A stretch of 64,000 nt of DNA, taken from the NCBI GenBank assembly GCA_963682135.1, contig OY821645.1, forward strand, positions 2,912,001 to 2,976,000, written 5' to 3'. A program made the position numbers and the translations under genes. The notes beneath the pieces are model-generated. The model was not told the origin of the DNA and made no database searches. It saw only the letters and a list, made by a program, of their open reading frames with translations. This document shows positions 39,771 to 53,565 of the stretch, piece by piece (positions within the stretch are counted from its first letter, which is position 1; each line of letters begins with the position of its first letter). This DNA is from Methanothrix sp. (lineage in GTDB: Archaea > Halobacteriota > Methanosarcinia > Methanotrichales > Methanotrichaceae).

Positions 39771-40091
39771 TTAAACCACTCTGCTAATCCTTTGAACGTC
39801 GCACGTTCACAACAGTCAGTTATCGCTATAGCATATGACGATTTGTATTTGGGCAAGACTCTTTTGGTTACTGGGTAATAGTGCGCTACAAATCGAAAAT
39901 GAATGCTTACTACATTTTATCAATTGATGCTAAAATCTCATTTCAATGAACATTTTCTGCCAGCCGGATGGACGATAAATGAATCTTGGAAATTGATTTG
40001 TCTATCTGGGGGGCAGAAAACTCTTTATAGTTCGACGATTGTCTTATATTATCAAGTTCACAATTGTGATAAAAGAGATCAAGGAGGAGCT

Positions 40092-40682
40092 ATGAAGATT
40101 ATTAGCCTGCTTCGTGCATTGGTCATTTTCAGTCTCATCGTCCTGCCTGCATGCTCGCAGCCGAGCCACAAGGACTGTTCCTGCATTCTCGGCAACTGCC
40201 CTGAAAAGACTGTGGACAGCTGCTGCAGCCAATCTTCCGATAGCTGCATCTCCATGAGCTGCAACTGTTCAGGCCAATTTGCATCTTATCAAGGGATGGA
40301 ATATTACGATCCCAGCGATTCGCATTTCAGGAAAGCAGGCTCGCGTTTGCCTGACAGGCAGGGGTTTGCTGGCCCGCAAAGCTGCAGCAACGCCGGTGCG
40401 TTATGCCCTGTGCCTCCAGCTTCACATAATAATAACCACGTCGGACCGCCGGATCCGGATGTAGTGGAATTTCTGCCCTCGTCAGCCAGGCAGGTATTCC
40501 AGGTGCTAGTTTCTGATGGACCTCTGACTCAAAAGGACATCATAAGCAAGACCGATCTCCCGCCAAGGACGGTGAGATATGCCCTGGGCAGGCTCAGGGG
40601 AGAGGATATGCTGGAAGAGCGCTTCTGCTTTCGCGATGCCCGGCAAAGCCTCTACGGCCTGAATGGAATGAATGCGAGGTGA
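40092..40682 (+). CDS. Hydrophobic N-terminus + Cys-rich region + wHTH regulator
   Basis: RBS AGGAGG; C-terminal LPSSARQVF...LTQKDI...RTVRYAL...DARQSLY. Confidence 0.7.
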   Translation: MKIISLLRALVIFSLIVLPACSQPSHKDCSCILGNCPEKTVDSCCSQSSDSCISMSCNCSGQFASYQGMEYYDPSDSHFRKAGSRLPDRQGFAGPQSCSNAGALCPVPPASHNNNHVGPPDPDVVEFLPSSARQVFQVLVSDGPLTQKDIISKTDLPPRTVRYALGRLRGEDMLEERFCFRDARQSLYGLNGMNAR

Positions 40683-40843
40683 AGCCACCTCTCCGTTTTT
40701 CATGGCCTATGTATTTCAATTGCGGATGCTCGAAGCTAAATTGCCTCAGCACAAAGATATAAATAACTCCTTGGTTAACAATTGTGATCGGTGATATTAA
40801 ATGAGGGATCGCCTTTGCTGACGCGGAAATACAGCCGCATAGT

Positions 40844-41080
40844 TTGAACCTGGACCGTTTGCCGCCATCGGCCAAGCTGGTTATCAAGGTGCTTGAATCG
40901 GGAAGCCTTCTAACCCAAAAAGAGATCATAGACAAGACCTACCTTCCTGCCAGAACCGTCAGATACGCTTTAACCAGGCTGAAGGAAGAGAATCTTCTCT
41001 TAAAGAAATTCTATTTCCCGGATGCACGCCAGAGCCTCTACGGCCTTAGCGCCGAATCCTCGGAGGTGATGACTGCATAA
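40844..41080 (+). CDS. Archaeal wHTH (MarR/Lrs14-like) regulator
   Basis: LPPSAKLVIKVL...LTQKEI...RTVRYAL...DARQSLY; the likely ATG at 40801 is out of frame. Confidence 0.75.
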   Translation: MNLDRLPPSAKLVIKVLESGSLLTQKEIIDKTYLPARTVRYALTRLKEENLLLKKFYFPDARQSLYGLSAESSEVMTA

Positions 41081-41193
41081 CCCTATTTTTTAACCATTAA
41101 ATTTTTTTAATTACACAAAAAATGTCTAGAATGTCATGGACAATCTTATCAATCATGGTGTCCTGATATTGATCCGATAATGGGAGAAATGAT

Positions 41194-41493
41194 ATGGAAC
41201 ACGTAAAATTGCAGCTAGCTGGAAAGCAGGCAGATGGATATGTGATCGCTTTGGGTCCGGTAAATCTCGTCAACGTTGTCACCGATGTGGGAATGGTGGG
41301 CTGCGGAGCATTTGATGTCGCTGCCCTAAACAACTTCGGCTACCCGGCAGCCAGGGTCAGGCCCGCTCAGGGAGTCTCCATTGCCACCATCGAGGATCTC
41401 TTGCAGGGCATAGTCAAGGAAGTGAATCCTGCTGCAGAGATGCTGGGATTGAAGGTTGGCCAGACCGGAAAAGAGGCACTCGAATTGCTATAG
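41194..41493 (+). CDS. YunC/DUF1805 family protein
   Basis: GMVGCGAFDV...TIEDLL...LGLKVGQTGKEAL. Confidence 0.8.
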   Translation: MEHVKLQLAGKQADGYVIALGPVNLVNVVTDVGMVGCGAFDVAALNNFGYPAARVRPAQGVSIATIEDLLQGIVKEVNPAAEMLGLKVGQTGKEALELL

Positions 41494-41505: not shown

Positions 41506-42072
41506 TCATCCAGTGATCAATAGTTCAGCTTCTTTCTCGGATGCTGTTGCTCTCGCAGCGTCGGCCAGTGCCTCTTCGAACTCATTTCTCTCTGATAGGG
41601 ATATCCGTGCGCTGCCCTCCGGATAAATCAATTCCAGTTCCTTCCTAACATCGTGAGAGGCAGGCACCCTCAATACGCGCAGATTTTCCAGCGACGTCTC
41701 GAAGAGAACTTTGCCAGGTGTCTTGACCCAGAGAATGACTCTTTGGCTGGTAATATTCCAGATGCCTGGCACCCAGCATTTTATCAGACCCTCATCCTCT
41801 CGCAGATATCCGAAGGTCTTGTAGAGGATCTCCTCGCCCGGGAAGAGCGGCAGGTGCGTCTCCTGGCTGGCATACAATTCCCGGCTGCTCTTATCCCAGT
41901 CTTCCATTATGCCGTACTCCAGCATGGTCTCCATGCCGGCGATCATGGCCCTCAGTGTCACGCCAATCAGGGGTATGCCGGCCACGGAGATGATTAGATC
42001 GGCGTTTAGAACTGCTCCCTTGTTGAGAAGCCGATCCAAAACCTCGACCAGACAGCTCTCTCTCTCCGGATT
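41506..42072 (-). CDS. gvpM: Gas vesicle protein GvpM-like with an extra C-terminal domain
   Basis: LVEVLDRLLNKGAVLNADLIISVAGIPLIGV. Confidence 0.75.
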   Translation of the reverse strand, partial: NPERESCLVEVLDRLLNKGAVLNADLIISVAGIPLIGVTLRAMIAGMETMLEYGIMEDWDKSSRELYASQETHLPLFPGEEILYKTFGYLREDEGLIKCWVPGIWNITSQRVILWVKTPGKVLFETSLENLRVLRVPASHDVRKELELIYPEGSARISLSERNEFEEALADAARATASEKEAELLITG

Positions 42073-42887
42073 CATCCTACCCCCGAGAGGCATACAAAGC
42101 TGAAGGGAGCCCAGGGGCCGGTGAACCTTACATAGAATCCTTCTTTGCCGTTTATCTCTTCAAGGACCTCGCCCAGCTTTTTCACGGCCTCATCCGAGAC
42201 CCTGCAGCAAAAGGCAGCGAGAAGCTTCTTGTCCTTGTATTTGTCCGCAGTCCAGGAGCTCTTGCCTGCGGCCTTCAGCTCTTCCGCCAAAGGCTTGATT
42301 TCTAAAAAAAACTGATCTGCCAGCCCGCCGGCTTCTGCGTAAGTCAGGTCTTTCAGCTTTATGTCAAGATTGCGCTTGAGAAGATAGGCCTTTCCTTTCG
42401 GCTCATTTTCGATGCGGCTTTTGAGATCCACCAGCTCCTGATTATGGGCTAATACCAGATTTTCCAAACAAGCATGATCGCAATATATCTGGATTGAATA
42501 CTCTGCCGTTCCCTGCATGCGCAGCAGCTCGCTTGCAAGTTTTTCGTAGTCCCGGCAAAGCCAGTCTAAAACCGCATCATCATCACCCCTGATGATGACA
42601 TCGAAAGAGAAAGGAAGCACGGTTCCGAACATCTTCGTCGCCTGGTCTATTACATAGCTATGCTCCAAGACCCAATCCTCGGCCAGCTTTTTGTCCTCGG
42701 TATGATATGGTTTTGCCTCGCAGGCATGTACTATTGCTGCGATGTCCTTGTAGGGTACTATGTAGACGTCATTCTCCTGGATGCCTATGCTGCCCAACCG
42801 GGCTTCCTGTCCGGTCATGGCAACTGAGTAAAGGTATCTGGCCTCGTTTACCATTATCTCAGGACTCCTCTTCCTGGCTTTCTTCAT
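42072..42887 (-). CDS. gvpL: Gas vesicle protein GvpL
   Basis: GTVLPFSF, FTGPWAPFSFV; late position in the cluster. Confidence 0.8.
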   Translation of the reverse strand: MKKARKRSPEIMVNEARYLYSVAMTGQEARLGSIGIQENDVYIVPYKDIAAIVHACEAKPYHTEDKKLAEDWVLEHSYVIDQATKMFGTVLPFSFDVIIRGDDDAVLDWLCRDYEKLASELLRMQGTAEYSIQIYCDHACLENLVLAHNQELVDLKSRIENEPKGKAYLLKRNLDIKLKDLTYAEAGGLADQFFLEIKPLAEELKAAGKSSWTADKYKDKKLLAAFCCRVSDEAVKKLGEVLEEINGKEGFYVRFTGPWAPFSFVCLSGVG

Positions 42888-43182
42888 TCCAGCTTGCAGG
42901 ATTCAGGAACTTGTCTATCAGGTCTTCTGCGGCCAGATCCAGATCAGTCCGAACCAATTGCACAGCATCTTCTATGTTGTTGTCAGACTTTATCTTGGCG
43001 AGGGCCTCGGTTAATTCAGAGAGGGCTTCGCCCAGTCGCTCTATTTCGCCGTCGCTGAGACTTCCACTCTCCATTCTCCTCAAAGCCTGTCGTTCTAAAA
43101 GCTCCTGGATGATCTCCACCAGGGCCACCACCAGGCCCAAAAGCCCATCCTTCAGGTTTCCTTCATCCAGGTTGATCGACAT
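42859..43182 (-). CDS. gvpK: Gas vesicle protein GvpK
   Basis: LLERQALRRMESGSLSDGEIERLG. Confidence 0.88.
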   Translation of the reverse strand: MSINLDEGNLKDGLLGLVVALVEIIQELLERQALRRMESGSLSDGEIERLGEALSELTEALAKIKSDNNIEDAVQLVRTDLDLAAEDLIDKFLNPASWNEESQEEES

Positions 43183-43190
43183 TTCGGGTC

Positions 43191-43838
43191 CTAGTCTAGC
43201 CGCAGGTGAAGTATGCCGTTCTTGAAGCTCTTCTCGATGATGGATTTTGCCTGCCTGGGCATTACTATTTTCTTGCTGAATTGACCGGCAGTTATTTCCA
43301 GAGAATCTCCCTCCAGATTCATCAGCAGCTCCTCCTCAGAGACCCCGGGCAGTTCGGCAATAATAGTGATACCGTCCTTTCCTTCCATCACATCCACTAT
43401 CGGCTGCCTTTGGGGTGCGGCCTCGGGCATTCTGACGCTTTCTGTTCGGGGAGCCGCCCGCCTCGCTGCATGGCCTGGGCCCCGGCCTAGCGGCCTGGTA
43501 GAGACATGATAGTCGACGACAGGCTTGCTGGACCAGCCAACATCGATCCTGTGTTTTATTTCTGCGTCCGTGTCGGCAATCCTCTGCCGAAATTCGGGTG
43601 AGGACTCTTCCAGGGACTTGATTATGCCTCCCAGACCGGGGATAAACTGGCTCACCACGTTATGCACTATCCCACCCATTTGAATATCGCCGCTTTGCTT
43701 ATGGGACCCCTTTTCCAGTTCTTCGATTCTTTTTTCCAGGCGCGCTATCTTCTCAGCATCCTCTTTATTCTTGCTTGCATCCTTATCTTTTGAGTCCTCG
43801 ACCATAAGTATCCCTCCAAGATCAATCGTAATTTCCAA
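43191..43838 (-). CDS. Hsp20/GvpH-like protein
   Basis: C-terminal alpha-crystallin domain IIAELPGV...FKNGILHLRL. Confidence 0.7.
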   Translation of the reverse strand: MEITIDLGGILMVEDSKDKDASKNKEDAEKIARLEKRIEELEKGSHKQSGDIQMGGIVHNVVSQFIPGLGGIIKSLEESSPEFRQRIADTDAEIKHRIDVGWSSKPVVDYHVSTRPLGRGPGHAARRAAPRTESVRMPEAAPQRQPIVDVMEGKDGITIIAELPGVSEEELLMNLEGDSLEITAGQFSKKIVMPRQAKSIIEKSFKNGILHLRLD

Positions 43839-44187
43839 CGCCGGGCCGGATGATGGGCAGAGGTGCTGGGCTGGACCAACCGCAGATATGACAGCCCTCC
43901 CGGATCAACTCATCTTCATCTCTTTTATTACCGCATTCCGGGCAGCAGGCCTTGGGTTTGACTGCATCTTTCCAGCCTGGTGCTTTAAGATTGGTTCCTG
44001 CGGGCATCTCCAGGCCGTACTTGGCTGCGGTCTCAAAAGAGGCTAATACTGCCCGAATCTTGATGCCCAAAAGCTCTGTGCCAGCTATTGATACGGCTAT
44101 ATCAGCATTGATCACCAGGCCCTTGTCAAGAATTCTTTCCACAATATCGGCAAGATTCTGGCTTTTTGTCGGCGCCAAAGAATTCAT
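43822..44187 (-). CDS. gvpJ: Gas vesicle protein GvpJ with C-terminal Zn-ribbon
   Basis: LADIVERILDKGLVINADIAVS...ASFETAAKYGL; CPEC..CHIC. Confidence 0.85.
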   Translation of the reverse strand: MNSLAPTKSQNLADIVERILDKGLVINADIAVSIAGTELLGIKIRAVLASFETAAKYGLEMPAGTNLKAPGWKDAVKPKACCPECGNKRDEDELIREGCHICGWSSPAPLPIIRPGVGNYD

Positions 44188-44199
44188 TTATACCCCCAC

Positions 44200-44481
44200 T
44201 TACCCTCGGTTGGCCATCTCGTTACGGATTCTCCTCTTATGAGCCAGTATCTTTGCCTTATGAATGAGCCTTTGCGTGCGCTGGATCATTCTGACCGTTG
44301 TCCTTTGAGTATGCCATCTCTCTTTGATCTTACGATTATTATTCCTGGAACTCACATACCAGGTTCTTTTCGTCTGCATAAGTGCAGGGAGGACCTCGTC
44401 TCTTATCCTTCTCTTATGAGCAGTTACCAGGGCGTGCTGACGTCTCCGGTTGTCCAGAACCTTTTGACTTAGAAGGGCCAT
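44200..44481 (-). CDS. Very basic small protein (GvpI-like position)
   Basis: Arg-rich, repeated AHKRRIR(D/N)E. Confidence 0.6.
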   Translation of the reverse strand: MALLSQKVLDNRRRQHALVTAHKRRIRDEVLPALMQTKRTWYVSSRNNNRKIKERWHTQRTTVRMIQRTQRLIHKAKILAHKRRIRNEMANRG

Positions 44482-44501
44482 TGTTTCATATCTCCACAAG
44501 A

Positions 44502-44696: not shown

Positions 44697-44978
44697 TTAT
44701 CCCAGTATATCCATCCTTGAACCGAGATCCATTTCCAAAACTTTCATAGCTACATCCAGCTTATGCAGGAGCTGTGAGTTCATCTGTTCGTATTCCTGGC
44801 GATCAAGCTCTCCAAATTCATAGAGCAGACGGGTCTCTTTTATCTGGTCTCTAATCTTTTCCGGATTGTAATATCCTTTCAAGGCAAATTTTTGGATCTG
44901 CTCCAGCGTCCAAATCATATCCAGCCCAGGCAGGGTGATTCCAATGGATCGCAGCACAATATCATCAATTATGAACAA
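44697..44978 (-). CDS. gvpG: Gas vesicle protein GvpG
   Basis: MFIIDD...YNPEKIRDQIKETRLLYEFGEL. Confidence 0.82.
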   Translation of the reverse strand: MFIIDDIVLRSIGITLPGLDMIWTLEQIQKFALKGYYNPEKIRDQIKETRLLYEFGELDRQEYEQMNSQLLHKLDVAMKVLEMDLGSRMDILG

Positions 44979-44979
44979 T

Positions 44980-45669
44980 CTATCGAAACCCCCTTCGTTT
45001 GCCTCCCAGGATATGAATGTCTACGAAGTTATAGGCAGGCCAGGGACCGGAGTATTGCACCTTCATCTCGTGATATCGTTCTTTAAGCCTGCCCACCTGC
45101 ACAGAGAACTCATCCATAGTGGACTTATCTACCAAAAAGGTGCTGTTTAAAATCAAGCGGTCAGAAAAGAGCTTGAGCTTTTTATTATCAGAGGAAACTG
45201 CTAAGAGGCTTTGCAGAAAATCGGCGCTGCATTCCTCTTTTTGGGCGCTGTTCATGGGTTCTAGATCTTTAGGAAGAAATACCTTGATGCCCAGTTCCAC
45301 CTTGCCGTCTACAATCGGCAGTGCCTTCTGCATGGCCTGATAGCCGGCGCTCATGGCAATTTGCAGTAGCTTCTTGCTCTTAAATGCCATGCCATAGGCC
45401 ACAGGAATCACACTGTACTCTCGCATTACCTGTTCAACTACATTCCTGTGGATCTCGACTTCCTGCTCAATAGCAGCATAATCCCTGTAGGTCACGTCAC
45501 TCACGACAGGGCTTAAGTCCCGATAGTCCATCGTATAGACCTCGCTGGCATCAAAGCCGATATTCCCAAAGCTCTCTCTCTCCTTAAATGGGAAAGGAAT
45601 GACGCAATAGACATACTTTCCTAGAGTCTCGGGGACATCCTTCTCAGCTTTGCGAATCCTCCTTAACAA
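44980..45669 (-). CDS. gvpF: Gas vesicle protein GvpF
   Basis: GKYVYCVI, VIPVAYGMAF, YSGPWPAYNFV. Confidence 0.85.
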   Translation of the reverse strand: MLRRIRKAEKDVPETLGKYVYCVIPFPFKERESFGNIGFDASEVYTMDYRDLSPVVSDVTYRDYAAIEQEVEIHRNVVEQVMREYSVIPVAYGMAFKSKKLLQIAMSAGYQAMQKALPIVDGKVELGIKVFLPKDLEPMNSAQKEECSADFLQSLLAVSSDNKKLKLFSDRLILNSTFLVDKSTMDEFSVQVGRLKERYHEMKVQYSGPWPAYNFVDIHILGGKRRGFR

Positions 45670-45673
45670 GAAG

Positions 45674-45952
45674 CTACACCTCTTCCTCGACCATCTCCAT
45701 GTCCGATCTTCTGCGCAGCATTATCCTCTTGTAGCCAAGAAGCTCCCCATCAAGATCGAATTTCATCTCGTACCTCCCCATAATATCCTGTGTGTCGGGC
45801 ACGGATCTTCTTTCCAAAACCTCGATCTCAGCCACCCAGCCTTCTGTATCCTTGTTAAGGCTGATGATGCTGTCAAGCTTCTTCTTCAACATGGTTTCTG
45901 CAGCTTGGGTTGCTATCCCAAGAATATCCTGAATCTTTGGCTTACCGCTCAT
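45674..45952 (-). CDS. gvpO: Gas vesicle protein GvpO
   Basis: GWVAEIEVLERRSVPDTQDIMGRYE. Confidence 0.88.
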   Translation of the reverse strand: MSGKPKIQDILGIATQAAETMLKKKLDSIISLNKDTEGWVAEIEVLERRSVPDTQDIMGRYEMKFDLDGELLGYKRIMLRRRSDMEMVEEEV

Positions 45953-46331
45953 GCATGGTCACCTGAGGAGTGTAGATAGAGAGCTCTCCATGAATGGGAA
46001 TTATTTCCACGTCCCTTCCCTTTAATTCATGAATTCTCTCTTTCAATTTATATTTATCTACTTCGTCAGCCAATCTATAGTAGCGAAGAAATGAGGCAAG
46101 CTTATGTCTCCTGGATTTGACGGCATCTCTGCCCAAGGCTTCTTCCTCAAAAGTTCCATCAGGTTTGAGGGTGAAATAGAATGTTGCCCCTATCTGTCTT
46201 CCGTCCTGCATTCTGGCTTTGATGACCAGAGCATCGGTCTCATTGAATGCGAGGCCAGGAGGCTTCTTGTGGAAGAGCTGGCTTATTTTATAAACCTCCG
46301 CCTCTTCGACTACCGCAGTTATTGGTTGCAT
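45942..46331 (-). CDS. Hypothetical protein between gvpN and gvpO
   Basis: 129-aa ORF overlapping the gvpO start. Confidence 0.65.
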   Translation of the reverse strand: MQPITAVVEEAEVYKISQLFHKKPPGLAFNETDALVIKARMQDGRQIGATFYFTLKPDGTFEEEALGRDAVKSRRHKLASFLRYYRLADEVDKYKLKERIHELKGRDVEIIPIHGELSIYTPQVTMHER

Positions 46332-46353: not shown

Positions 46354-47430
46354 TCAAGCTGCCGACTCTCTAACCAGTCTCTTCTTCTCTTCCATATCCT
46401 TGGGAGAACAGGTCTTGTTGGCTATGACATCGATGCACATTTGCTGGAAATCTATGGTTAAATCTTCTCGGTCTTTTAGGGTTTGCAGTCCTTTGGCGAT
46501 CATGATGCAAGCCCTGGTTCCGGGTTTCTGGGCATCAGGAAGCTTTTCTCTTATCGATCTTATTGTCTGTACAATCTTCTCGGCTTTGTCCTGAGAGATT
46601 CCCGTGTGCTCCATCACGATTCGCACTTCAGTCTCGTGGCCGTAGTAGTCGGCATATATGCCCACCATACGATCGAGCAGCGCATCTTGCGGCCTGTGAA
46701 TTCCTGCATATTCAATGGAGTTGCTGGTGAGGATGGCTTTGAAATCCGGATGAACTTTTATGTACCTTTCTTCTCCAAATTTAGTTGGAAGTTCCAGGAT
46801 GCCTTCTTCAAAGACGGACAGGAGAACGTTATTCGATGCAGGCTTGGTTCTGGAGAACTCGTTGTAGATGAGGGTATAACCATATTTGCAAGCCAGAGAG
46901 AGGGGATTGTCAACCCACTCGATCTTCATGGTATCTCTTGTCTTGAAGACGTTGTGGACGTAATTATCTCGCACACTTTCGCTCTGCATCTGAGAGTAGC
47001 CGCCGATTAAATCGGATGTAGTTATAGCTTCATCTCCGTTTATCCAGACCACAGGCCGCCCAAGTCTTTTGGCCACATGTACGGCCATGCTGGTCTTGCC
47101 GCAGCCTGTAGGCCCAATCAGATGTACAGGATATCCAGCTTGAAGCCACAGAGAGAGGCGGCTTTCCATCTCCATTACCTCCGGGGTGCTGATGAAATGA
47201 TTTGCCTCGGGCGTGAGGAAAGCCTCTTCAATGGCCTTATGCCTGGCTTCTTCAGATATCAATTCATAGCTGCAGTCCATATTAGCCGGAGATTTGATTC
47301 TCACTTGAATGCTGGGATCATTTAATCCTGCCTTAGAATTGTGAGCCATCTCGCTAGCCTTTTTCTCAGAAGCGGTCATGTGAACTGCTTCCCCTCTCAC
47401 CCTTCTGGGATGTGACTCAATATACGGCAT
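46354..47430 (-). CDS. gvpN: Gas vesicle AAA+ ATPase GvpN
   Basis: HLIGPTGCGKT, YNEFSR, EYAGIHRPQDALLDR. Confidence 0.92.
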   Translation of the reverse strand: MPYIESHPRRVRGEAVHMTASEKKASEMAHNSKAGLNDPSIQVRIKSPANMDCSYELISEEARHKAIEEAFLTPEANHFISTPEVMEMESRLSLWLQAGYPVHLIGPTGCGKTSMAVHVAKRLGRPVVWINGDEAITTSDLIGGYSQMQSESVRDNYVHNVFKTRDTMKIEWVDNPLSLACKYGYTLIYNEFSRTKPASNNVLLSVFEEGILELPTKFGEERYIKVHPDFKAILTSNSIEYAGIHRPQDALLDRMVGIYADYYGHETEVRIVMEHTGISQDKAEKIVQTIRSIREKLPDAQKPGTRACIMIAKGLQTLKDREDLTIDFQQMCIDVIANKTCSPKDMEEKKRLVRESAA

Positions 47431-47482: not shown

Positions 47483-48295
47483 TTACCCATAGTAGAAATC
47501 ACGGACATAGTTCTTGAGATCTTGCTCTTGATATCTGTAGATCTCATTTTGGAAAGACGCTGCTCTTCCTTGAAGCTCCCTTGCTCCGGAATACAGCCTG
47601 GAGACAGCTTCGCGGTTCTCTTTTATCTGTGAGTTAAGATTGCTTTGGAACTTTGCCAGACCAGTCTGCAAATTTCTGTAGCCCTCATCTCTGATGTTCT
47701 TTCCAGCTTTCGAAAATTCACGAGCCATCTTTTCCTGAGAGGACATAATCTCTCTGGCTCCTGAGTGCATTCTTGCGGTAGCGTCCGAATTTTCCTTGAT
47801 TTGGGCATCAATTGACCGCTTGAATTGCATTTGAGCCTGATCGAATCTCTTCTGACCGTCCTCTACCATTTTTTGGGCTTCGGAGTGCATATTTCTAGAT
47901 AATGTGTTGCTGGCAGCGTGGAACTCTTTCACCGATTTGGTCATCTCTCGGATACCTTCATCACGGATATCTTTACCAGCTTTCTTGATTTCAGCTGCTT
48001 TGTTATCGATTGCATTGGCCTTTGCCAAAACACCCTTCTTGCCAAAGCCAGCCGGTTTCGCTGCACTTTTCGGTTTTTCGATCATTGAAGCCTCTTTAGG
48101 ACTCACATGTGGTATGGGCTTGGGAGGCTCTTTCTGCTTCTTCATAGCCTCCAGGATATACTCAGCTAACTGAGACTTTGTTCCTCCCAAATTCTCCAAA
48201 CCATACTTCAGAGCCAATTCTTCCAGATCTCGCCGAGTGTGCTTAGTTACCAGCTCGTCGAAGGTCTCAACTTTGTTGGTTGCGTATTCTTCCAT
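47483..48295 (-). CDS. GvpC-like helical repeat protein with N-terminal HeH (SAP/Rho-N-like) motif
   Basis: Position between gvpA and gvpN; repeats KAGK(D/N)IRDEG and QIKEN...SGARE. Confidence 0.6.
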   Translation of the reverse strand: MEEYATNKVETFDELVTKHTRRDLEELALKYGLENLGGTKSQLAEYILEAMKKQKEPPKPIPHVSPKEASMIEKPKSAAKPAGFGKKGVLAKANAIDNKAAEIKKAGKDIRDEGIREMTKSVKEFHAASNTLSRNMHSEAQKMVEDGQKRFDQAQMQFKRSIDAQIKENSDATARMHSGAREIMSSQEKMAREFSKAGKNIRDEGYRNLQTGLAKFQSNLNSQIKENREAVSRLYSGARELQGRAASFQNEIYRYQEQDLKNYVRDFYYG

Positions 48296-48331
48296 GGCTC
48301 TTCCTCCTAAAATAATTAGAAGAAATCAGCA

Positions 48332-48562
48332 CTAAGCAGGAACCCCAGGAGTAGCGCCGATGGCCGCTTGTTCGATCTTGGCCATCTCCTCAGAGTAGTG
48401 CAGATAGGTGTCCACCGATGCTACGACAACACGTGCCTCGACGGTCAGAATCTCAATACCCACCAGGCTGATCCTGGCCCAAACATCGACTACGATACCC
48501 TTGTCGAGAATCCTATCCAGAACCTCGGCAAGACTTGATGCGTCCGGTGTAGCGGTTACCAT
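48332..48562 (-). CDS. gvpA: GvpA copy 6 (variant C-terminus GATPGVPA)
   Basis: [18 protein letters not shown]...[13 protein letters not shown]. Confidence 0.95.
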
Positions 48563-48597
48563 TTTTATTCACTCCTTTAGATATTGCATTAACAGAT

Positions 48598-48828
48598 TTA
48601 AGCTGGGACTTTGGGGCTTGCTCCGATGGCCGCCTGCTCTATTTTGGCCATCTCTTCAGAGTAGTGCAGGTAGGTGTCCACCGATGCAACGACAACGCGT
48701 GCCTCGACGGTCAGAATCTCAATACCCACCAGGCTGATCCTGGCCCAAACATCGACTACGATACCCTTGTCGAGAATCCTATCCAGAACCTCGGCAAGAC
48801 TTGATGCGTCCGGTGTAGCGGTTACCAT
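48598..48828 (-). CDS. gvpA: GvpA copy 5
   Basis: 76 aa, canonical GvpA motif. Confidence 0.95.
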
Positions 48829-48863
48829 TTTTATTCACTCCTTTAGATATTGCATTAACAGAT

Positions 48864-49094
48864 TTAAGCTGGGACTTTGGGGCTTGCTCCGATGGCCGCC
48901 TGCTCTATTTTGGCCATCTCTTCAGAGTAGTGCAGGTAGGTGTCCACCGATGCAACGACAACGCGTGCCTCGACGGTCAGAATCTCAATACCCACCAGGC
49001 TGATCCTGGCCCAAACATCGACTACGATTCCCTTGTCGAGAATCCTATCCAGAACCTCGGCAAGACTTGATGCGTCCGGTGTAGCGGTTACCAT
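48864..49094 (-). CDS. gvpA: GvpA copy 4
   Basis: Protein identical to copy 5. Confidence 0.95.
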
Positions 49095-49129
49095 TTTTAT
49101 TCACTCCTTTAGATATTGCATTAACAGAT

Positions 49130-49360
49130 TTAAGCTGGGACTTTGGGGCTTGCTCCGATGGCTGCCTGCTCTATTTTGGCCATCTCTTCAGAGTAGTGCA
49201 GGTAGGTGTCCACCGATGCAACGACAACGCGTGCCTCGACGGTCAGAATCTCAATACCCACCAGGCTGATCCTGGCCCAAACATCGACTACGATACCCTT
49301 GTCGAGAATCCTATCCAGAACCTCGGCAAGACTTGATGCGTCCGGTGTAGCGGTTACCAT
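49130..49360 (-). CDS. gvpA: GvpA copy 3
   Basis: Protein identical to copy 5. Confidence 0.95.
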
Positions 49361-49395
49361 TTTTATTCACTCCTTTAGATATTGCATTTACAGAT

Positions 49396-49626
49396 TTAAG
49401 CTGGGACTTTGGGGCTTGCTCCGATGGCTGCCTGCTCAATCTTTGCCATCTCTTCAGAGTAGTGCAGGTAGGTGTCCACCGATGCAACGACAACGCGTGC
49501 CTCGACGGTCAGAATCTCAATACCTACCAGGCTGATCCTGGCCCAAACATCGACTACGATACCCTTGTCGAGAATCCTATCCAGAACCTCGGCAAGACTT
49601 GATGCGTCCGGTGTAGCGGTTACCAT
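49396..49626 (-). CDS. gvpA: GvpA copy 2
   Basis: Protein identical to copy 5. Confidence 0.95.
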
Positions 49627-49660
49627 TTTTATTCACTCCTCTTAATATGTAAATACAAAT

Positions 49661-49891
49661 TTAAGCTGGGACTTTGGGGCTTGCTCCGATGGCTGCCTGC
49701 TCAATCTTTGCCATCTCTTCAGAGTAGTGCAGGTAGGTGTCCACCGATGCAACGACAACGCGTGCCTCGACGGTCAGAATCTCAATACCTACCAGGCTGA
49801 TCCTGGCCCAAACATCGACTACGATTCCCTTGTCGAGAATCCTATCCAGAACCTCGGCAAGACTTGATGCGTCCGGTGTAGCGGTTACCAT
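49661..49891 (-). CDS. gvpA: GvpA copy 1
   Basis: Protein identical to copy 5; ATG at 49891. Confidence 0.95.
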
Positions 49892-50285
49892 TTTTCTCTT
49901 CTCCCTCTGACTTATCCTGAGCAATCTCAAGGATTATTATTTGTCTGGGATTATTTCTAAAGCATTTTTTTATGCAAAGGACTGGAGGCGGATAGTTGGA
50001 GGCCGCTGCCTATCCTTCCCTCCTCCTGTCCTCTGTGTCTGACACTCCACTTTGGCTGAGTTCATCTGTACGAATTTTCTCCCAGAGCCCTTCGTACAAT
50101 ACCATAGAGAGTACGGTTGGGACTAAATAGTCTTTCATCTTCTGTATTTTGTCTCAAGTGTTGTTTCTAAATTTGTTTCAAAAATTGAGAGTTAACAAGC
50201 TATATGTTTTAGAAAAATAGATAATAATCATCGGTATCATGGGATCAAGCAGATTATAATAGATGTCATGGTCTGGAGGTAAATT

Positions 50286-50654
50286 ATGAAACTACTTATA
50301 ATTGATGACGCTCCGGAGATGCTTAAAGCATTCAGGGACATACTCGAAGCCTATGGATGCGAGGTATACGTAGCGGAAAACGGTGAAGAAGGCCTGACCA
50401 GATATACAGAAGTTATGCCGGATGTCGTTCTAATGGATATATTGATGCCCAAGCTTGATGGCATAAGTGCTACTAAAAAAATTCTGGAGATGGACCCATC
50501 CGCGAAAATTATTGTTATCTCTGCTGTGGGAAAGAGTGGACTTGATAATGAATGCCTCCTTGCCGGCGCTAAGAAATTTATTATAAAACCATTTAAGATA
50601 AAAGAACTAATGAGCTCAATCAACTCGCTGGTGTCAATGAATGAAAGGAATTGA
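50286..50654 (+). CDS. Stand-alone response regulator receiver (CheY-like)
   Basis: IIDD, VLMDILMP, KPF. Confidence 0.92.
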   Translation: MKLLIIDDAPEMLKAFRDILEAYGCEVYVAENGEEGLTRYTEVMPDVVLMDILMPKLDGISATKKILEMDPSAKIIVISAVGKSGLDNECLLAGAKKFIIKPFKIKELMSSINSLVSMNERN

Positions 50655-51774
50655 ATCGGTAAGGGGGTATCAGGAAGAAATAATTGAGGCGATCCCCAGC
50701 ACCATCATTGTCGTAAATAGGAGCCTGGAGGTGCTTTACGCCAATAGGAATTATTATGCTAAATCAGTCGCGAAGCGGGAGAGGGATGTCTTGGGAGAGA
50801 GACTGTCCAGGGTAATTCCGTCTATGCTCATAGAAAAAACAGGAATTATTGATAAAATTCGAGAGGTTTTTCTTACCGGTGTTCCTTTTGATGGTGATCA
50901 GATCAGATATCCGGGCGGGATGTTCTATTTCTATAAAATATATCCTTTGAAGGAGGATGAAGAGTGCATAAGCAAGGTTGTAATCTTCATGGAGAACATC
51001 ACCGAGCTTACCCGACTGGAAGAGGAGCTTCGGGAATCTTATGTCAAGCTGGAGAATGCTTTTGCCGAGCTGAAAGAGAATGACGAAATCAAGTCTGAGT
51101 TCATCTCTACTGCCTCTCACGAACTCAGAACTCCCATAACCGTGATCAACAGTTACGTTGAGATGTTCGAGGGAGGGATGCTCGGCGAGCTTACTGGAGT
51201 TCAGCGGGAAAAGGTGGCGATCATAAGCTCGCAGATTGAGCATATGATTCGACTGGTAGAAGACATGCTTGATGTCTCTCGATTGGAGTCAAAGGCTCTC
51301 AAGATCAATAAATATCTTATCCGGGTCGATGATATAGCCAGAAAAGCTCTCGATGATCTGAGTCGTCTGGCCGGGCTAAAAGAGCAGTCTGTGTCTTTGA
51401 CCATAGAGGGAGAACCCCCTCTGGTGGAAGGCGATGATCGGAGAATCAAGCAGGTCTTCAATAACCTTCTTACGAATGCCATCAAGTACACTCCCAAAAA
51501 AGGAAAGATTGACGTAATAATTACCGATGAGCCGGAGGATATCTGTGTATCGATAATTGATAATGGTATGGGAGTTGCCAAGAAGGATCAACAGAGAATC
51601 TTTGAAAAATTCTATACAGGCAGCGGCAGCTCGCTGACCAGAGAATCAGGTCGTATGGGCCTTGGCCTGGCCATAGCCAAGGGAATAATTGAGGCTCATG
51701 AAGGACGCATTTGGGTAGCGAGCGAGGTTGGCAAGGGAAGCACATTTGTTTTCACATTGCCCAAAAAGCTATGA
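50641..51774 (+). CDS. Cytoplasmic PAS sensor histidine kinase
   Basis: N-terminal PAS; SHELRTP, NLLTNAIKY, DNGMG, GLGLAI; no TM helix. Confidence 0.92.
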   Translation: MKGIESVRGYQEEIIEAIPSTIIVVNRSLEVLYANRNYYAKSVAKRERDVLGERLSRVIPSMLIEKTGIIDKIREVFLTGVPFDGDQIRYPGGMFYFYKIYPLKEDEECISKVVIFMENITELTRLEEELRESYVKLENAFAELKENDEIKSEFISTASHELRTPITVINSYVEMFEGGMLGELTGVQREKVAIISSQIEHMIRLVEDMLDVSRLESKALKINKYLIRVDDIARKALDDLSRLAGLKEQSVSLTIEGEPPLVEGDDRRIKQVFNNLLTNAIKYTPKKGKIDVIITDEPEDICVSIIDNGMGVAKKDQQRIFEKFYTGSGSSLTRESGRMGLGLAIAKGIIEAHEGRIWVASEVGKGSTFVFTLPKKL

Positions 51775-52421
51775 TCAAAAATATTCTTGCCAGGCTCAAG
51801 ATCGCGCATGCAGTTGTGCCCACGACTGAACCCTTAAATAGTCATGTATGTCGCGATTTGACCAAAGGCTCCAGCTACCTGGTCAAGGAGCAAAAGGCAG
51901 AGGTTGGCTTCGAACTCTTTGTCTCTTTGGTAAAGGGAAGGTGCAAAGATTGCGATTATCTTGATTCTTTCCCCTGCGAGAGCATCGGTTGTGAAAAGTG
52001 CAAGTTGCCGTGCACCTGCAAAGTATGCAAGCATTCAAGGGCGCAGGGATTATGCTTTACAATGCATTCACCTCAGGATATCCGTTTGAGGTATGCTCTG
52101 CAAACTACTCCTATTTTCTGGATAAGCAATCATGGGACCCAGAGCATCAGCCCAATGGGCCTTGAGGTAATTGCTGATATTGTCATCAAGTTCTTGAAGC
52201 AAAGCAAGAATCCGGTAATTCTTCTGGACGGAATAGAGCATTTGATCTTCGAAAATGGCTCAGCGCCTGTGTTGAGGTTGCTGAGGGATATACAAGAGTT
52301 GATCATAATGCAGAGGGCCATTCTAATCGTGCCGGTAAATCCTGAGGCGATCGAGAAGAAAGAGCTGGCATTGATGGAACGAAATATGAGCGAGCTAAGG
52401 CAAAACACAATTGATGACTGA
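51771..52421 (+). CDS. DUF835 (inactive KaiC-like) protein with Cys-rich insertion
   Basis: GSSYLVKE, TTPIFWIS, VILLDGIEHLIFENG, KELALMER. Confidence 0.8.
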   Translation: MIKNILARLKIAHAVVPTTEPLNSHVCRDLTKGSSYLVKEQKAEVGFELFVSLVKGRCKDCDYLDSFPCESIGCEKCKLPCTCKVCKHSRAQGLCFTMHSPQDIRLRYALQTTPIFWISNHGTQSISPMGLEVIADIVIKFLKQSKNPVILLDGIEHLIFENGSAPVLRLLRDIQELIIMQRAILIVPVNPEAIEKKELALMERNMSELRQNTIDD

Positions 52422-52496
52422 AAGCCAGCGCTTAAGTGGACGAAAAAATTCTTATAGTTTGTACTGCTACGATTAATTGGAGTCATCATTAATCAC

Positions 52497-52868
52497 ATGA
52501 AAACATCGATCCAGAACTTCGAGGACCTCGGTGAATTCCAGGAGGATAACTGCAAAAAGTTCGTTGATAGAATCATCAAGACGAATCGCGAAGTTTTTAT
52601 GATGTCTTCCCTTATTGAAAAGCAAATGTGTGGTTATGATCTGATTAAAGAAATATTCTCGAAGTGTGATGTTTTTCTCAGCCAGGGAACCGTTTATCCC
52701 GTCTTATATACTCTCGAGGGAGAGGGATTGCTGCATGCCGAATATAGCAAGGGTGATATGAGAAGCAAAAATTACAGCCTTACGCTCAAGGGCAGAAAAA
52801 TCGCTGAAAAGGACATTGATGATTTCTCAAAAGCATTGGAGCAGGTATGCTTATTACTCAAGAGATGA
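52497..52868 (+). CDS. PadR-family regulator (GvpE-like)
   Basis: MCGYDLIKEI...LSQGTVYPVLYTLE...YSLTLKG. Confidence 0.85.
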   Translation: MKTSIQNFEDLGEFQEDNCKKFVDRIIKTNREVFMMSSLIEKQMCGYDLIKEIFSKCDVFLSQGTVYPVLYTLEGEGLLHAEYSKGDMRSKNYSLTLKGRKIAEKDIDDFSKALEQVCLLLKR

Positions 52869-52872
52869 GTTG

Positions 52873-53565
52873 ATGCTGAAGAACACAATCAATGGCCTCG
52901 ATAAAATTCTCTTTGATGAAATCCCTAAGGGTTCAGTGATCCTTGTAACCGGTGCAGAAGGTACTCTGAAATCAGGCCTGGTATTCAGCATGATGGCCAA
53001 CTATTTTTCGGCGAATGATGAACATGGCCTCTATGTAACTTTAGAGCAAAATATAGAAAGTCATCTTAGAAACATGAATAGTCTGGGGATTAGAGAAGAG
53101 CCTGGTTTACATATATTTGACTACCGGGATATGCGGTTGGAGTGGATGGACAGCGAATTGGATCTCATAAGAACTACTGAGGAAGTCATCGATTCTTACA
53201 AAGAAAAGTATAACAACCTGACGTTATTTGCACTTGATTCTCTAAATGCCCTCTATTCCATCTCAGATCCTGGAAATATGAGGACGAAAATCTATAATTT
53301 CTTTTCGCATCTTCGAGATGAAGAGCTTACATCTTTCTTGATAATGGAGTCTGCCCAGTCGAGAATCTCTGGACAATTCTCCCAATTTCATCAAGTAGAG
53401 CATTTCCTGGCGGACGGAACAATTGAGCTCGGCATGATTGAAGGGAAAGGCGGCGTGAAAAGGTACATTCAAATCTTGAAAATGAGAGCCACAAAACACG
53501 CGATGGAAAAGCATCAGCTTATCATCGGCGATAATGGGCTGAATATTCTCGGTCCTATCTATTAA
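52873..53565 (+). CDS. KaiC/RAD55-family ATPase (GvpD-like)
   Basis: GAEGTLKS, LYVTLEQ, ALDSLN, HFLADG, ILKMRATKH. Confidence 0.85.
   Translation: MLKNTINGLDKILFDEIPKGSVILVTGAEGTLKSGLVFSMMANYFSANDEHGLYVTLEQNIESHLRNMNSLGIREEPGLHIFDYRDMRLEWMDSELDLIRTTEEVIDSYKEKYNNLTLFALDSLNALYSISDPGNMRTKIYNFFSHLRDEELTSFLIMESAQSRISGQFSQFHQVEHFLADGTIELGMIEGKGGVKRYIQILKMRATKHAMEKHQLIIGDNGLNILGPIY

Follow-up and report, generated by a model that had tools for sequence, protein, structure and literature searches.

A probable gas-vesicle control module facing gvpA in Methanothrix and related archaea

Which genes could control flotation in methanogens? How gas vesicles are regulated is understood for haloarchaea, for some cyanobacteria and for Serratia. 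For methanogen gas-vesicle clusters, a review names no regulator in the portion of its text accessible to us, to which all citations of it below refer (PMC9501494). The question is raised by a 64-kb stretch of Methanothrix sp. contig OY821645.1 (the window; the genome, coded G000, is a single contig of 3.04 Mb), in which five genes encoding a receiver, a PAS kinase, a DUF835 protein, a PadR-family regulator and a KaiC-like protein are transcribed away from an array of gvpA genes. We propose that this locus is probably a gas-vesicle (buoyancy) control circuit, in which a PadR/KaiC-family output would be joined to an input composed of two-component proteins and an inactivated KaiC. Buoyancy control is the probable role because the module travels with flotation genes in three archaeal families. 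The proposal draws on domains, conserved catalytic and cysteine residues, gene coupling, gvp linkage, a cis-element and published co-expression.

A five-gene module linked to gas-vesicle clusters

All five genes lie on the + strand (50286-53565) and are divergent from gvpA, as a preliminary description of this DNA had reported, and Pfam recovered the domains that it had named. The first encodes a stand-alone CheY-like receiver (REC; 122 amino acids (aa), 50286..50654; PF00072, E 4e-27) and is followed by genes for a cytoplasmic histidine kinase (HK) with PAS, HisKA and HATPase_c domains by Pfam (377 aa, 50641..51774), the DUF835 protein (216 aa, 51771..52421; PF05763, E ~2e-26), the PadR-family winged-helix regulator (123 aa, 52497..52868; PF03551, E 2.4e-10) and the single-domain KaiC-like protein (230 aa, 52873..53565; PF06745, E ~3e-35, residues 3-226). 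The third and fifth open reading frames (ORFs) are long and TTG-started, and their real starts are most likely the internal ATGs at 51771 and 52873, the former of which overlaps the kinase stop as ATGA. The partial overlap described for these genes thus holds for REC and HK (14 nucleotides (nt)) and for HK and DUF835 (4 nt), but with the corrected starts for no other pair: the PadR and KaiC genes are 4 nt apart, and the 75-nt gap between DUF835 and PadR contains a conserved promoter-like box, GACGAAAAAATTCTTATAGTTTG (52439..52462, + strand), ~45 nt upstream of the PadR start.

Spacing and catalytic-residue counts were taken from the fetched ortholog loci. Of 33 loci, 26 have REC and HK genes that share 14 or 4 nt, and 30 have HK and DUF835 genes that overlap or lie at most 1 nt apart; PadR and KaiC are spaced by -29 to +7 nt in 34 of 34, and a gap of at least 43 nt separates DUF835 from PadR in 27 of 27. 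DUF835 is translationally coupled to the kinase and not to KaiC, and the GACGAAAAAATTCTTATAGTTTG box is kept within the genus, also at two relocated PadR-KaiC pairs (L051 and L055). This suggests a division into two units, REC-HK-DUF835 and PadR-KaiC, of which the latter is preceded by a promoter-like box of its own. In the complete genome G057, and in G012 and G042, REC-HK-DUF835 still stands opposite gvpA and PadR-KaiC lies elsewhere in the genome, and G052 has a second PadR-KaiC pair. The five-gene arrangement is not a matter of chance, because it recurs in many genomes of three families.

We surveyed 105 genomes of the order, covering one family and 16 genera, and called KaiC orthologs within it at a threshold of at least 53% identity. 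A KaiC ortholog was present in 39 of these genomes and gvpA in 46; 36 had both, three had KaiC alone (G051, G087 and G016), ten had gvpA alone and 56 had neither. Among the 39 KaiC-bearing genomes, gvpA lies on the same contig at a distance of 2.3-5.3 kb in 26, the rest being nine loci cut by contig ends, three split cases and one genome without gvp genes (G087). In tblastn maps drawn for 40 fetched regions of the order, many genomes have the full five-gene set opposite gvpA. Genus g14 has the five genes inside the cluster, which reads gvpH..gvpN-gvpA and then, divergently, REC-HK-DUF835-PadR-KaiC-gvpG-J-M-K-L; in G093, PadR-KaiC lies between gvpH and gvpG.

A collection-wide scan with the KaiC alignment gave 80 loci, in which orthologs were set at ~49% identity or above. 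The 53 orthologs comprise 36 with gvp genes, 13 cut by contig ends and four unlinked loci, namely G087 and three pairs consisting of PadR and KaiC only. The association with gvp clusters for which the preliminary description had proposed a test is thus present in 36 of the 40 informative loci (the 53 orthologs minus the 13 cut), and gvp genes were found beside none of the 27 more distant relatives (38-47% identity), which come from Methanomethylovorans, Methanococcoides, Methanomassiliicoccales and Thermoplasmatota. Linkage on the same contig extends over seven genera of the family and two further families. These counts are not independent trials, because the sets overlap and the genomes are related.

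Outside the order but in the same class, 20 gvpA loci were fetched. Seven of them contain the full module (six Ca. Methanoperedens and one Methanolobus metagenome-assembled genome (MAG)), three are cut within it, four from Methanosarcinaceae have PadR as the sole module gene facing gvpA (Pfam confirmed two of them), one carries a PadR-like gene at the cluster's far end and two have none nearby. Methanotrichaceae, Ca. Methanoperedens and a Methanolobus MAG are thus where the full module and gvpA face each other. Of the five genes, PadR has been kept beside gvp most widely: it stands alone opposite gvpA in G020, G034, G098, G227, G228, G346 and G340, and a PadR ortholog occurs in three of the ten gvpA genomes of the order that have no KaiC.

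Published expression data also place the five genes with the gvp genes. In Methanothrix thermoacetophila, where the order of Mthe_0064-Mthe_0068 is that of the g14 loci, all five module genes are listed as up, by 2.03-2.79-fold, in acetate versus direct interspecies electron transfer (DIET) conditions (PMC10470525, supplementary file 5, sheet "up acetate vs DIET"): 2.79-fold for the receiver (Mthe_0064), 2.55-fold for the PAS kinase (Mthe_0065), 2.05-fold for DUF835 (Mthe_0066), 2.04-fold for PadR (Mthe_0067) and 2.03-fold for the KaiC/GvpD/RAD55 ATPase (Mthe_0068). The gvp genes flanking them are up by 2.19-2.94-fold (PMC10470525). The main text of that paper contains no mention of PadR, DUF835, KaiC, a response regulator or a histidine kinase.

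The shared control block and the regulator proteins

In the window, 394 nt separate gvpA from REC; at other loci this spacer measures 144-1076 nt. It contains a conserved block of ~95 nt (50112..50206, no strand assigned), defined by an nhmmer profile built from 27 loci, which in the window reads CTAAATAG-TCTTTCATCTT..TGTCTC..TGTTTC..TTTGTTTCAAAAATTGAGAG-TTAACAAG-CTATATG. A TATA-like CTAAATAG pointing towards gvpA (50123-50130) is followed by TGTCTC/TGTTTC repeats ~12 nt apart (50150, 50162 and 50174), an inverted TTGAGAG (50185-50191), TTAACAAG and a TATA-like CTATATG pointing towards REC (50200-50206). In general form, three or four TGTYTC words ~12 nt apart and an inverted half are flanked on either side by outward-pointing TATA-like boxes. 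This block is conserved across three families: over the 27 loci, identity reaches 80% or more in 42 of 107 alignment columns. The window copy is 57-67% identical to those of Methanoperedens and other distant loci and 47% identical to that of L045.

The block profile has one match in the 3.04-Mb genome (E 1.7e-20). It also matches between PadR and gvpA in the PadR-only loci L062 (E 7e-8) and L063 (E 2.5e-6), and in L070 it matches upstream of a second PadR-KaiC pair (E 1.5e-7). Because the block persists where PadR-only or extra PadR-KaiC loci stand, PadR is the best candidate for its binder and the block a candidate operator. The upstream regions of three relocated PadR-KaiC pairs (L051, L053 and L055) did not match the profile, and neither did those loci of Methanosarcinaceae that have PadR alone. 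G087 retains just the right part of the block. The intergenic region was missed by an exact genome search for GTTTC-N2-9-GAAAC, as its right arm reads GAGAG.

Both two-component proteins keep their catalytic residues. Receiver residues D7, D8, D51 and K101 are invariant in 37 orthologs, and in 34 kinase orthologs the H box (H160), the N box (N275/N279), G1 (DxGxG) and G2 (GxG) are invariant and the PAS domain is highly conserved. With a phospho-acceptor Asp in the one and H, N, G1 and G2 boxes in the other, the two qualify as two-component proteins by sequence. The description of the kinase as cytoplasmic agrees with the finding of no Pfam membrane domain, and all its catalytic motifs are conserved.

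The DUF835 protein was modelled by AlphaFold2 with a RecA/KaiC-like fold (predicted local distance difference test (pLDDT) 77.6), for which Foldseek returned FlaH 4yds at the top (E 1.3e-5, template modelling (TM) score 0.49), then PH0250, KaiC and RecA; a protein atlas search matched DUF835 clusters only. That this protein is inactive, as had been suggested, fits the PF05763 match, the modelled fold and the absence of GK[ST] between strand 1 and helix 1, that is, of a P-loop. Between helix 1 and strand 2 it has an insert with eight invariant cysteines (C58, C61, C69, C74, C77, C81, C83 and C86), in addition to C95. The insert has low model confidence, is absent from the non-gvp paralogs in REC-DUF835-KaiC trios, and is probably metal-binding. 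A redox or energy signal is a guess, for which these eight cysteines offer a structural hint.

The KaiC-like protein matches KaiC chains (E 2.1e-39) and PH0186 (E 3e-25) in the PDB. Its Walker A motif is GAEGTLKS in the window, and GxEGxLK[ST] is invariant in 23 of 23 orthologs, so that Leu32 replaces the Gly before the Lys in all of them. G27, E29, G30, L32, K33 and D122 are invariant in these 23 orthologs, Ser/Thr34 and Glu/Asp58 are kept, and the alignment has a mean column identity of 65%. Leu or Met occupies the same position in more distant KaiC-like relatives too, and the non-canonical P-loop is therefore a trait of the subfamily. Given the invariant Leu in place of the canonical Gly, the active ATPase of the preliminary description is putative.

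We then compared the PadR-KaiC pair with haloarchaeal GvpE and GvpD, using references from pNRC100. The comparison of both with PadR and KaiC families was well founded: pNRC100 GvpE matches PF03551 (E 5.3e-7, 30 bits against a cut-off of 27) and sources name its homologs "PadR family", and pNRC100 GvpD matches the KaiC, GvpD_P-loop and GvpD_bR2 models. The window PadR, which is the single PF03551 match in G000 and the sole match there in a GvpE search, aligns with GvpE at 28% identity over 72 residues in BLASTP (E 2e-7), and its profile scores 94.5% against the single GvpE sequence and 96.6% against the GvpE profile (hhalign; E 6.3e-10, 83 columns). With its 123 aa it falls outside the GvpE clade, whose members have ~190 aa and a long N-terminal region. 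A GvpE search returned 62 proteins, all haloarchaeal where named, and the best plasmid matches of the window PadR are bacterial PadRs, with no GvpE at E<=0.01.

The KaiC-like protein aligns with GvpD at 21% identity over the whole domain (BLASTP, E 6e-5), and the two profiles align with E 1.6e-4 over 191 columns at 50% probability. A genome scan with PF07088 (GvpD_P-loop) at E<=10 left the KaiC-like gene of the window unmatched, PF20440 (GvpD bR2) had no match anywhere in the genome at the same threshold, and BLASTP and hhalign found no similarity of DUF835 to GvpD or to its C-terminal (bR2) half. The idea of a GvpD split into an ATPase and DUF835 is thus not supported, as the KaiC-like protein misses the GvpD_P-loop model and DUF835 has no profile similarity to GvpD. 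Since Methanomethylovorans and Methanococcoides have REC-DUF835-KaiC trios with neither gvp nor PadR, the module has the appearance of a KaiC-hub cassette that was recruited, not of a GvpD that was split. The analogy to GvpD and GvpE is nevertheless real at family level, since GvpE is a Pfam PadR protein and GvpD a KaiC-family protein; it is not one of orthology, and the output cassette is analogous to GvpE/GvpD and, by these matches, homologous at the level of families.

GvpD itself was modelled by AlphaFold2 with pLDDT 69. Aligned with full-length KaiC, the model covers ~380 residues over both halves with a root-mean-square deviation (rmsd) of ~17 Å and a Z of ~19, which is no higher than for the N-domain alone; the model suggests that GvpD carries a degenerate second KaiC-like domain. 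Elsewhere in G000, outside the window, the PF07088 model matches a 461-aa GvpD_P-loop protein (G000:C1:2563978-2565363; locus L172:5979-7364) at E 3e-22 (5.4e-22 in the whole-genome scan). Its gene adjoins genes for carbon monoxide dehydrogenase/prismane, ferredoxin and mtrA/mtrH, has no bR2 match and occurs in 99 of the 105 genomes of the order, with or without gvp, several of the matches being flagged with one in-frame stop.

In layout, the window resembles the haloarchaeal GvpD-GvpE regions (p-vac, c-vac and mc-vac), where KaiC-family and PadR-family genes also lie side by side, divergent from gvpA, with a short control region between divergent promoters; in haloarchaea, overlapping GvpE-responsive elements lie next to the transcription factor B recognition element (BRE)/TATA box (PMC9501494). 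The differences are several. PadR precedes KaiC here, whereas gvpD precedes gvpE there. GvpD has 536 aa, two domains and a canonical GxxGxGKT, the canonical P-loop being required for its function (PMC9501494), whereas the protein described here is a single domain with GxEGxLK[ST] and matches neither PF07088 nor PF20440. The haloarchaeal regions have no kinase, receiver or DUF835 gene, and the review describes GvpD and GvpE as haloarchaea-specific and methanogen clusters as lacking gvpDE (PMC9501494).

Proposed circuit and competing explanations

The module is real and makes sense functionally. In the circuit that we favour, PadR would bind the TGTTTC-repeat element between the two divergent TATA-like boxes and would thereby set jointly how the gvpA operon and the regulator genes are transcribed. 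Its KaiC-like partner, with the non-canonical P-loop, would modulate the activity or stability of PadR by protein contact, as GvpD does with GvpE. On the input side, the soluble PAS kinase would sense an intracellular cue and phosphorylate the stand-alone receiver, which would act on DUF835, an inactivated KaiC-like protein with its eight-cysteine insert, and DUF835 might in turn influence the KaiC-like protein.

Several points weigh against this proposal. The binding steps, the sign of regulation, the signal and nucleotide binding by the KaiC-like protein are all things that we infer, and that protein may lack ATPase activity, given its deviant Walker A. The window PadR is at least as close to bacterial PadRs as to GvpE. 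At the PadR-KaiC pairs away from gvp (G057, G012 and G042), the block profile is silent upstream, where there are just single or double TGTTTC words. The preliminary description had held that an operon found independently of gvp genes would speak against its idea, and this applies in part: the orthologs are mostly linked, but G087 (91% complete) has the five genes with no gvp gene in its genome and a carB-like gene at the gvpA position, and REC-DUF835-KaiC trios occur elsewhere. Conversely, G008 (99% complete) has gvp genes and REC-HK-DUF835 with no PadR or KaiC ortholog found, the kinase is missing in G097 and L136, the Methanosarcina-type clusters G327 and G381 have no PadR nearby, and KaiC, absent from ten gvpA-bearing genomes, is therefore dispensable. 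Because of these exceptions, the circuit is to be regarded as modular and partly dispensable. A gvp island that moves as a block could, moreover, carry its neighbours along, and the genomes are not independent samples.

Some of the same exceptions could be accommodated if PadR alone were a ligand-responsive, autoregulated regulator of gvpA and the KaiC-like protein, DUF835, receiver and kinase acted after transcription, on assembly, turnover or another output, and not via PadR. Several lineages do have PadR and the control block beside gvpA without these partners; REC-HK-DUF835 remains next to gvpA where PadR-KaiC has relocated, and also in the PadR-less G008; KaiC is missing from the ten genomes just mentioned; and the deviant P-loop speaks against a classical ATPase-driven switch. 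We nonetheless think this division of labour unlikely, as PadR and KaiC keep their close spacing in 34 of 34 loci and move together, and as there is a precedent in GvpD-GvpE for pairing a KaiC-family protein with one of the PadR family (PMC9501494).

It is less likely still that the genes are passengers, that is, a general KaiC-hub and two-component cassette with targets elsewhere, captured into a block-spreading gvp island. Such a history would suit the trios without gvp in Methanomethylovorans and Methanococcoides, the retention of all five genes in G087, the PadR-KaiC pairs away from gvp in G057, G012, G042 and G052, and the insertion elements that flank methanogen gvp clusters (PMC9501494). 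It sits poorly with the linkage of 36 of 40 informative ortholog loci against none of the more distant relatives, and with the genes being embedded between gvp operons in genus g14. Apart from three cases, genomes of the order without gvpA lack the orthologs (56 genomes), the shared control block is unique in the genome, and the genes are co-expressed with gvp.

That the 461-aa GvpD_P-loop protein is the real GvpD counterpart and PadR partner, with the gvp-linked KaiC-like protein an inert relic, is very improbable, for although it matches PF07088 (E 3e-22) and gives a canonical KaiC-type match where the gvp-linked gene does not, and although one source gives it the name GvpD P-loop domain protein, it is encoded by a core gene kept irrespective of gvp beside carbon monoxide dehydrogenase, ferredoxin and mtr genes, without bR2 match, and the gvp-linked protein is under strong constraint (65% mean column identity, many invariant residues).

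Within the favoured reading of a gas-vesicle control circuit, a further and rather doubtful step would be that PadR-KaiC and GvpE-GvpD share one ancestral gas-vesicle switch. GvpD would then be a fusion of a KaiC-like and an inactivated domain, and the methanogen form a phosphorelay-gated pseudo-ATPase hetero-assembly of the L-for-G KaiC and DUF835, with the eight-cysteine centre reading redox or metal. The GvpD model bears on the fusion, as it aligns over both KaiC halves, but with a high rmsd. If this were true, flotation in major methane producers and oxidisers would be tied directly to energy status.

Other known systems offer partial parallels. In 2017 Makarova, Galperin and Koonin reportedly described signalling hubs of archaea that are built on KaiC-like proteins and contain receiver domains and inactivated KaiC (DUF835). 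Galperin et al. (2018) classed DUF835 as an inactivated KaiC domain and reported REC-DUF835 fusions in Methanomicrobia and Thermoplasmata (PMC5847659); the accessible portion of that paper has 0 occurrences of gas vesicles. The accessible portion of Makarova et al. (2016) says on gas vesicles only that KaiC-family ATPases regulate them in halobacteria (PMC4858521). The DUF835 fold found here agrees with the inactivated-KaiC class, and REC-DUF835-KaiC trios occur in other Methanosarcinaceae; unlike those systems, the window module adds a dedicated PAS kinase, a PadR output and a fixed gvp neighbourhood, and its DUF835 has the eight-cysteine insert that the non-gvp paralogs lack. The trios without gvp and PadR at L145-L153 (Methanomethylovorans, Methanococcoides and related) have a KaiC with the same L-for-G Walker A and a DUF835 without the cysteine insert, and a trio of this type may be the parent cassette of the gvp-linked one.

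Signal-transduction-type regulators inside a gvp cluster are also found in Serratia, in the form of gvrA, gvrB and gvrC. GvrA of Serratia is an NtrC-type response regulator. By description, this system differs from the one presented here in being bacterial and sigma-54-type, with no PadR, KaiC or DUF835. The layout of the Serratia sp. ATCC 39006 gas-vesicle cluster includes all three gvr genes (PMC9501494).

As the preliminary description had surmised, we found no account of a methanogen gvp regulator module in the literature, although a mention in the 2017 KaiC-hub or Methanosarcina barkeri genome papers is possible. Methanothrix and Methanoperedens are major in methane release and oxidation, for which position in the water or sediment column matters. 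The locus provides a concrete candidate circuit for them, with a DNA-binding protein and its candidate operator, a partner, a kinase/receiver input and a cysteine-rich sensor candidate. It extends the KaiC-family/PadR-family pairing beyond haloarchaea, defines a KaiC subfamily with a fixed non-canonical P-loop, and could supply control parts for engineered gas-vesicle reporters.

The gvp cluster and the gvpA leader

The cluster that the regulator genes face lies on the - strand and begins with six tandem gvpA genes of 76 aa each with a period of ~266 nt (48332..49891), identified as ORFs and by PF00741, which has six matches in G000; the promoter-proximal copy starts with the ATG at 49891. Five copies encode identical proteins, and the promoter-distal one (48332-48562) differs near its C-terminus (GATPGVPA versus GASPKVPA). 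The copy number in relatives is 1-7, and MAG assemblies often break there.

Directly after gvpA, at the position that gvpC has in other clusters, lies a gene for a repeat-bearing 270-aa protein with no Pfam match (47483-48295, - strand). It has repeats of the types AGKDIRDEG.. and AGKNIRDEG.., carries IKENxxAxxRxxSGAREL twice, and is kept in position in related loci at 26-93% identity. This protein may be a GvpC analog; the review describes gvpC as absent from methanogen clusters (PMC9501494).

Further along the - strand, and with families assigned by Pfam, follow gvpN (46354-47430), gvpO (45674-45952), gvpF (44980-45669), gvpG (44697-44978), a gvpJ-like gene (43822-44187), an Hsp20/gvpH-like gene (43191-43838), gvpK (42859-43182), gvpL (42072-42887) and a 195-aa GvpA-family (M-like) gene (41506-42093), in an order that is kept in related loci. 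Two ORFs on the same strand, one of 129 aa between gvpN and gvpO (45942-46331) and a basic one of 99 aa between gvpG and gvpJ (44200-44499), have no Pfam or NCBIfam match and recur in most related clusters; the 99-aa ORF repeats an AHKRRIRxE motif.

At the far end of the cluster (39903-41493, + strand), two small winged-helix proteins share a ..LPxRTVRYAL.RL...ARQSLYGL motif. One of them (259 aa) has a cysteine-rich middle, a homolog of it also borders the gvp cluster in L034, and the pair is followed by a DUF1805 protein; both may be further regulators. Clusters of Ca. Methanoperedens (L071-L080 and L120-L143) contain a second PadR-like gene between gvpO and gvpF, which shares 28-37% identity with the PadR of the window; in several of these clusters a small Hsp20-like ORF separates gvpA from the receiver gene, and L071 has a third PadR further downstream.

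The gvpA leader contains a hairpin or palindrome, ATCCTTGAG..CTCAGGAT in gvpA sense (49914..49934, - strand), 23-43 nt upstream of the gvpA ATG and directly 5' of a GGAG-type ribosome-binding site. Folding predicts a hairpin at this relative position in every one of 21 loci, with differing stem sequences; single-sequence folds gave a median z of -1.9, seven of the 21 being below -2, which is modest. RNAalifold on a MAFFT alignment of gvpA leaders returned no consensus structure, and a search of 49600-50320 against Rfam gave nothing credible (best E 0.86). Possible roles of the hairpin are in RNA stability or translation, or as an operator for a protein, and in principle its 5' arm (UCCU/CUCC) might pair with the GGAGG site as well.

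Finally, in wetland metatranscriptome runs X1-X3, contigs over the gvpA repeats (48300-50069) have very high word depth, and those on the regulator genes are few and of low depth; contigs cannot rank expression, and DNA carry-over is possible. One near-identical contig of depth 2, for which DNA carry-over is likewise possible, spans 49911-50002, upstream of the proximal TATA-like run at ~49962-49975, and because it reaches this far it hints that the gvpA transcript may start further upstream.

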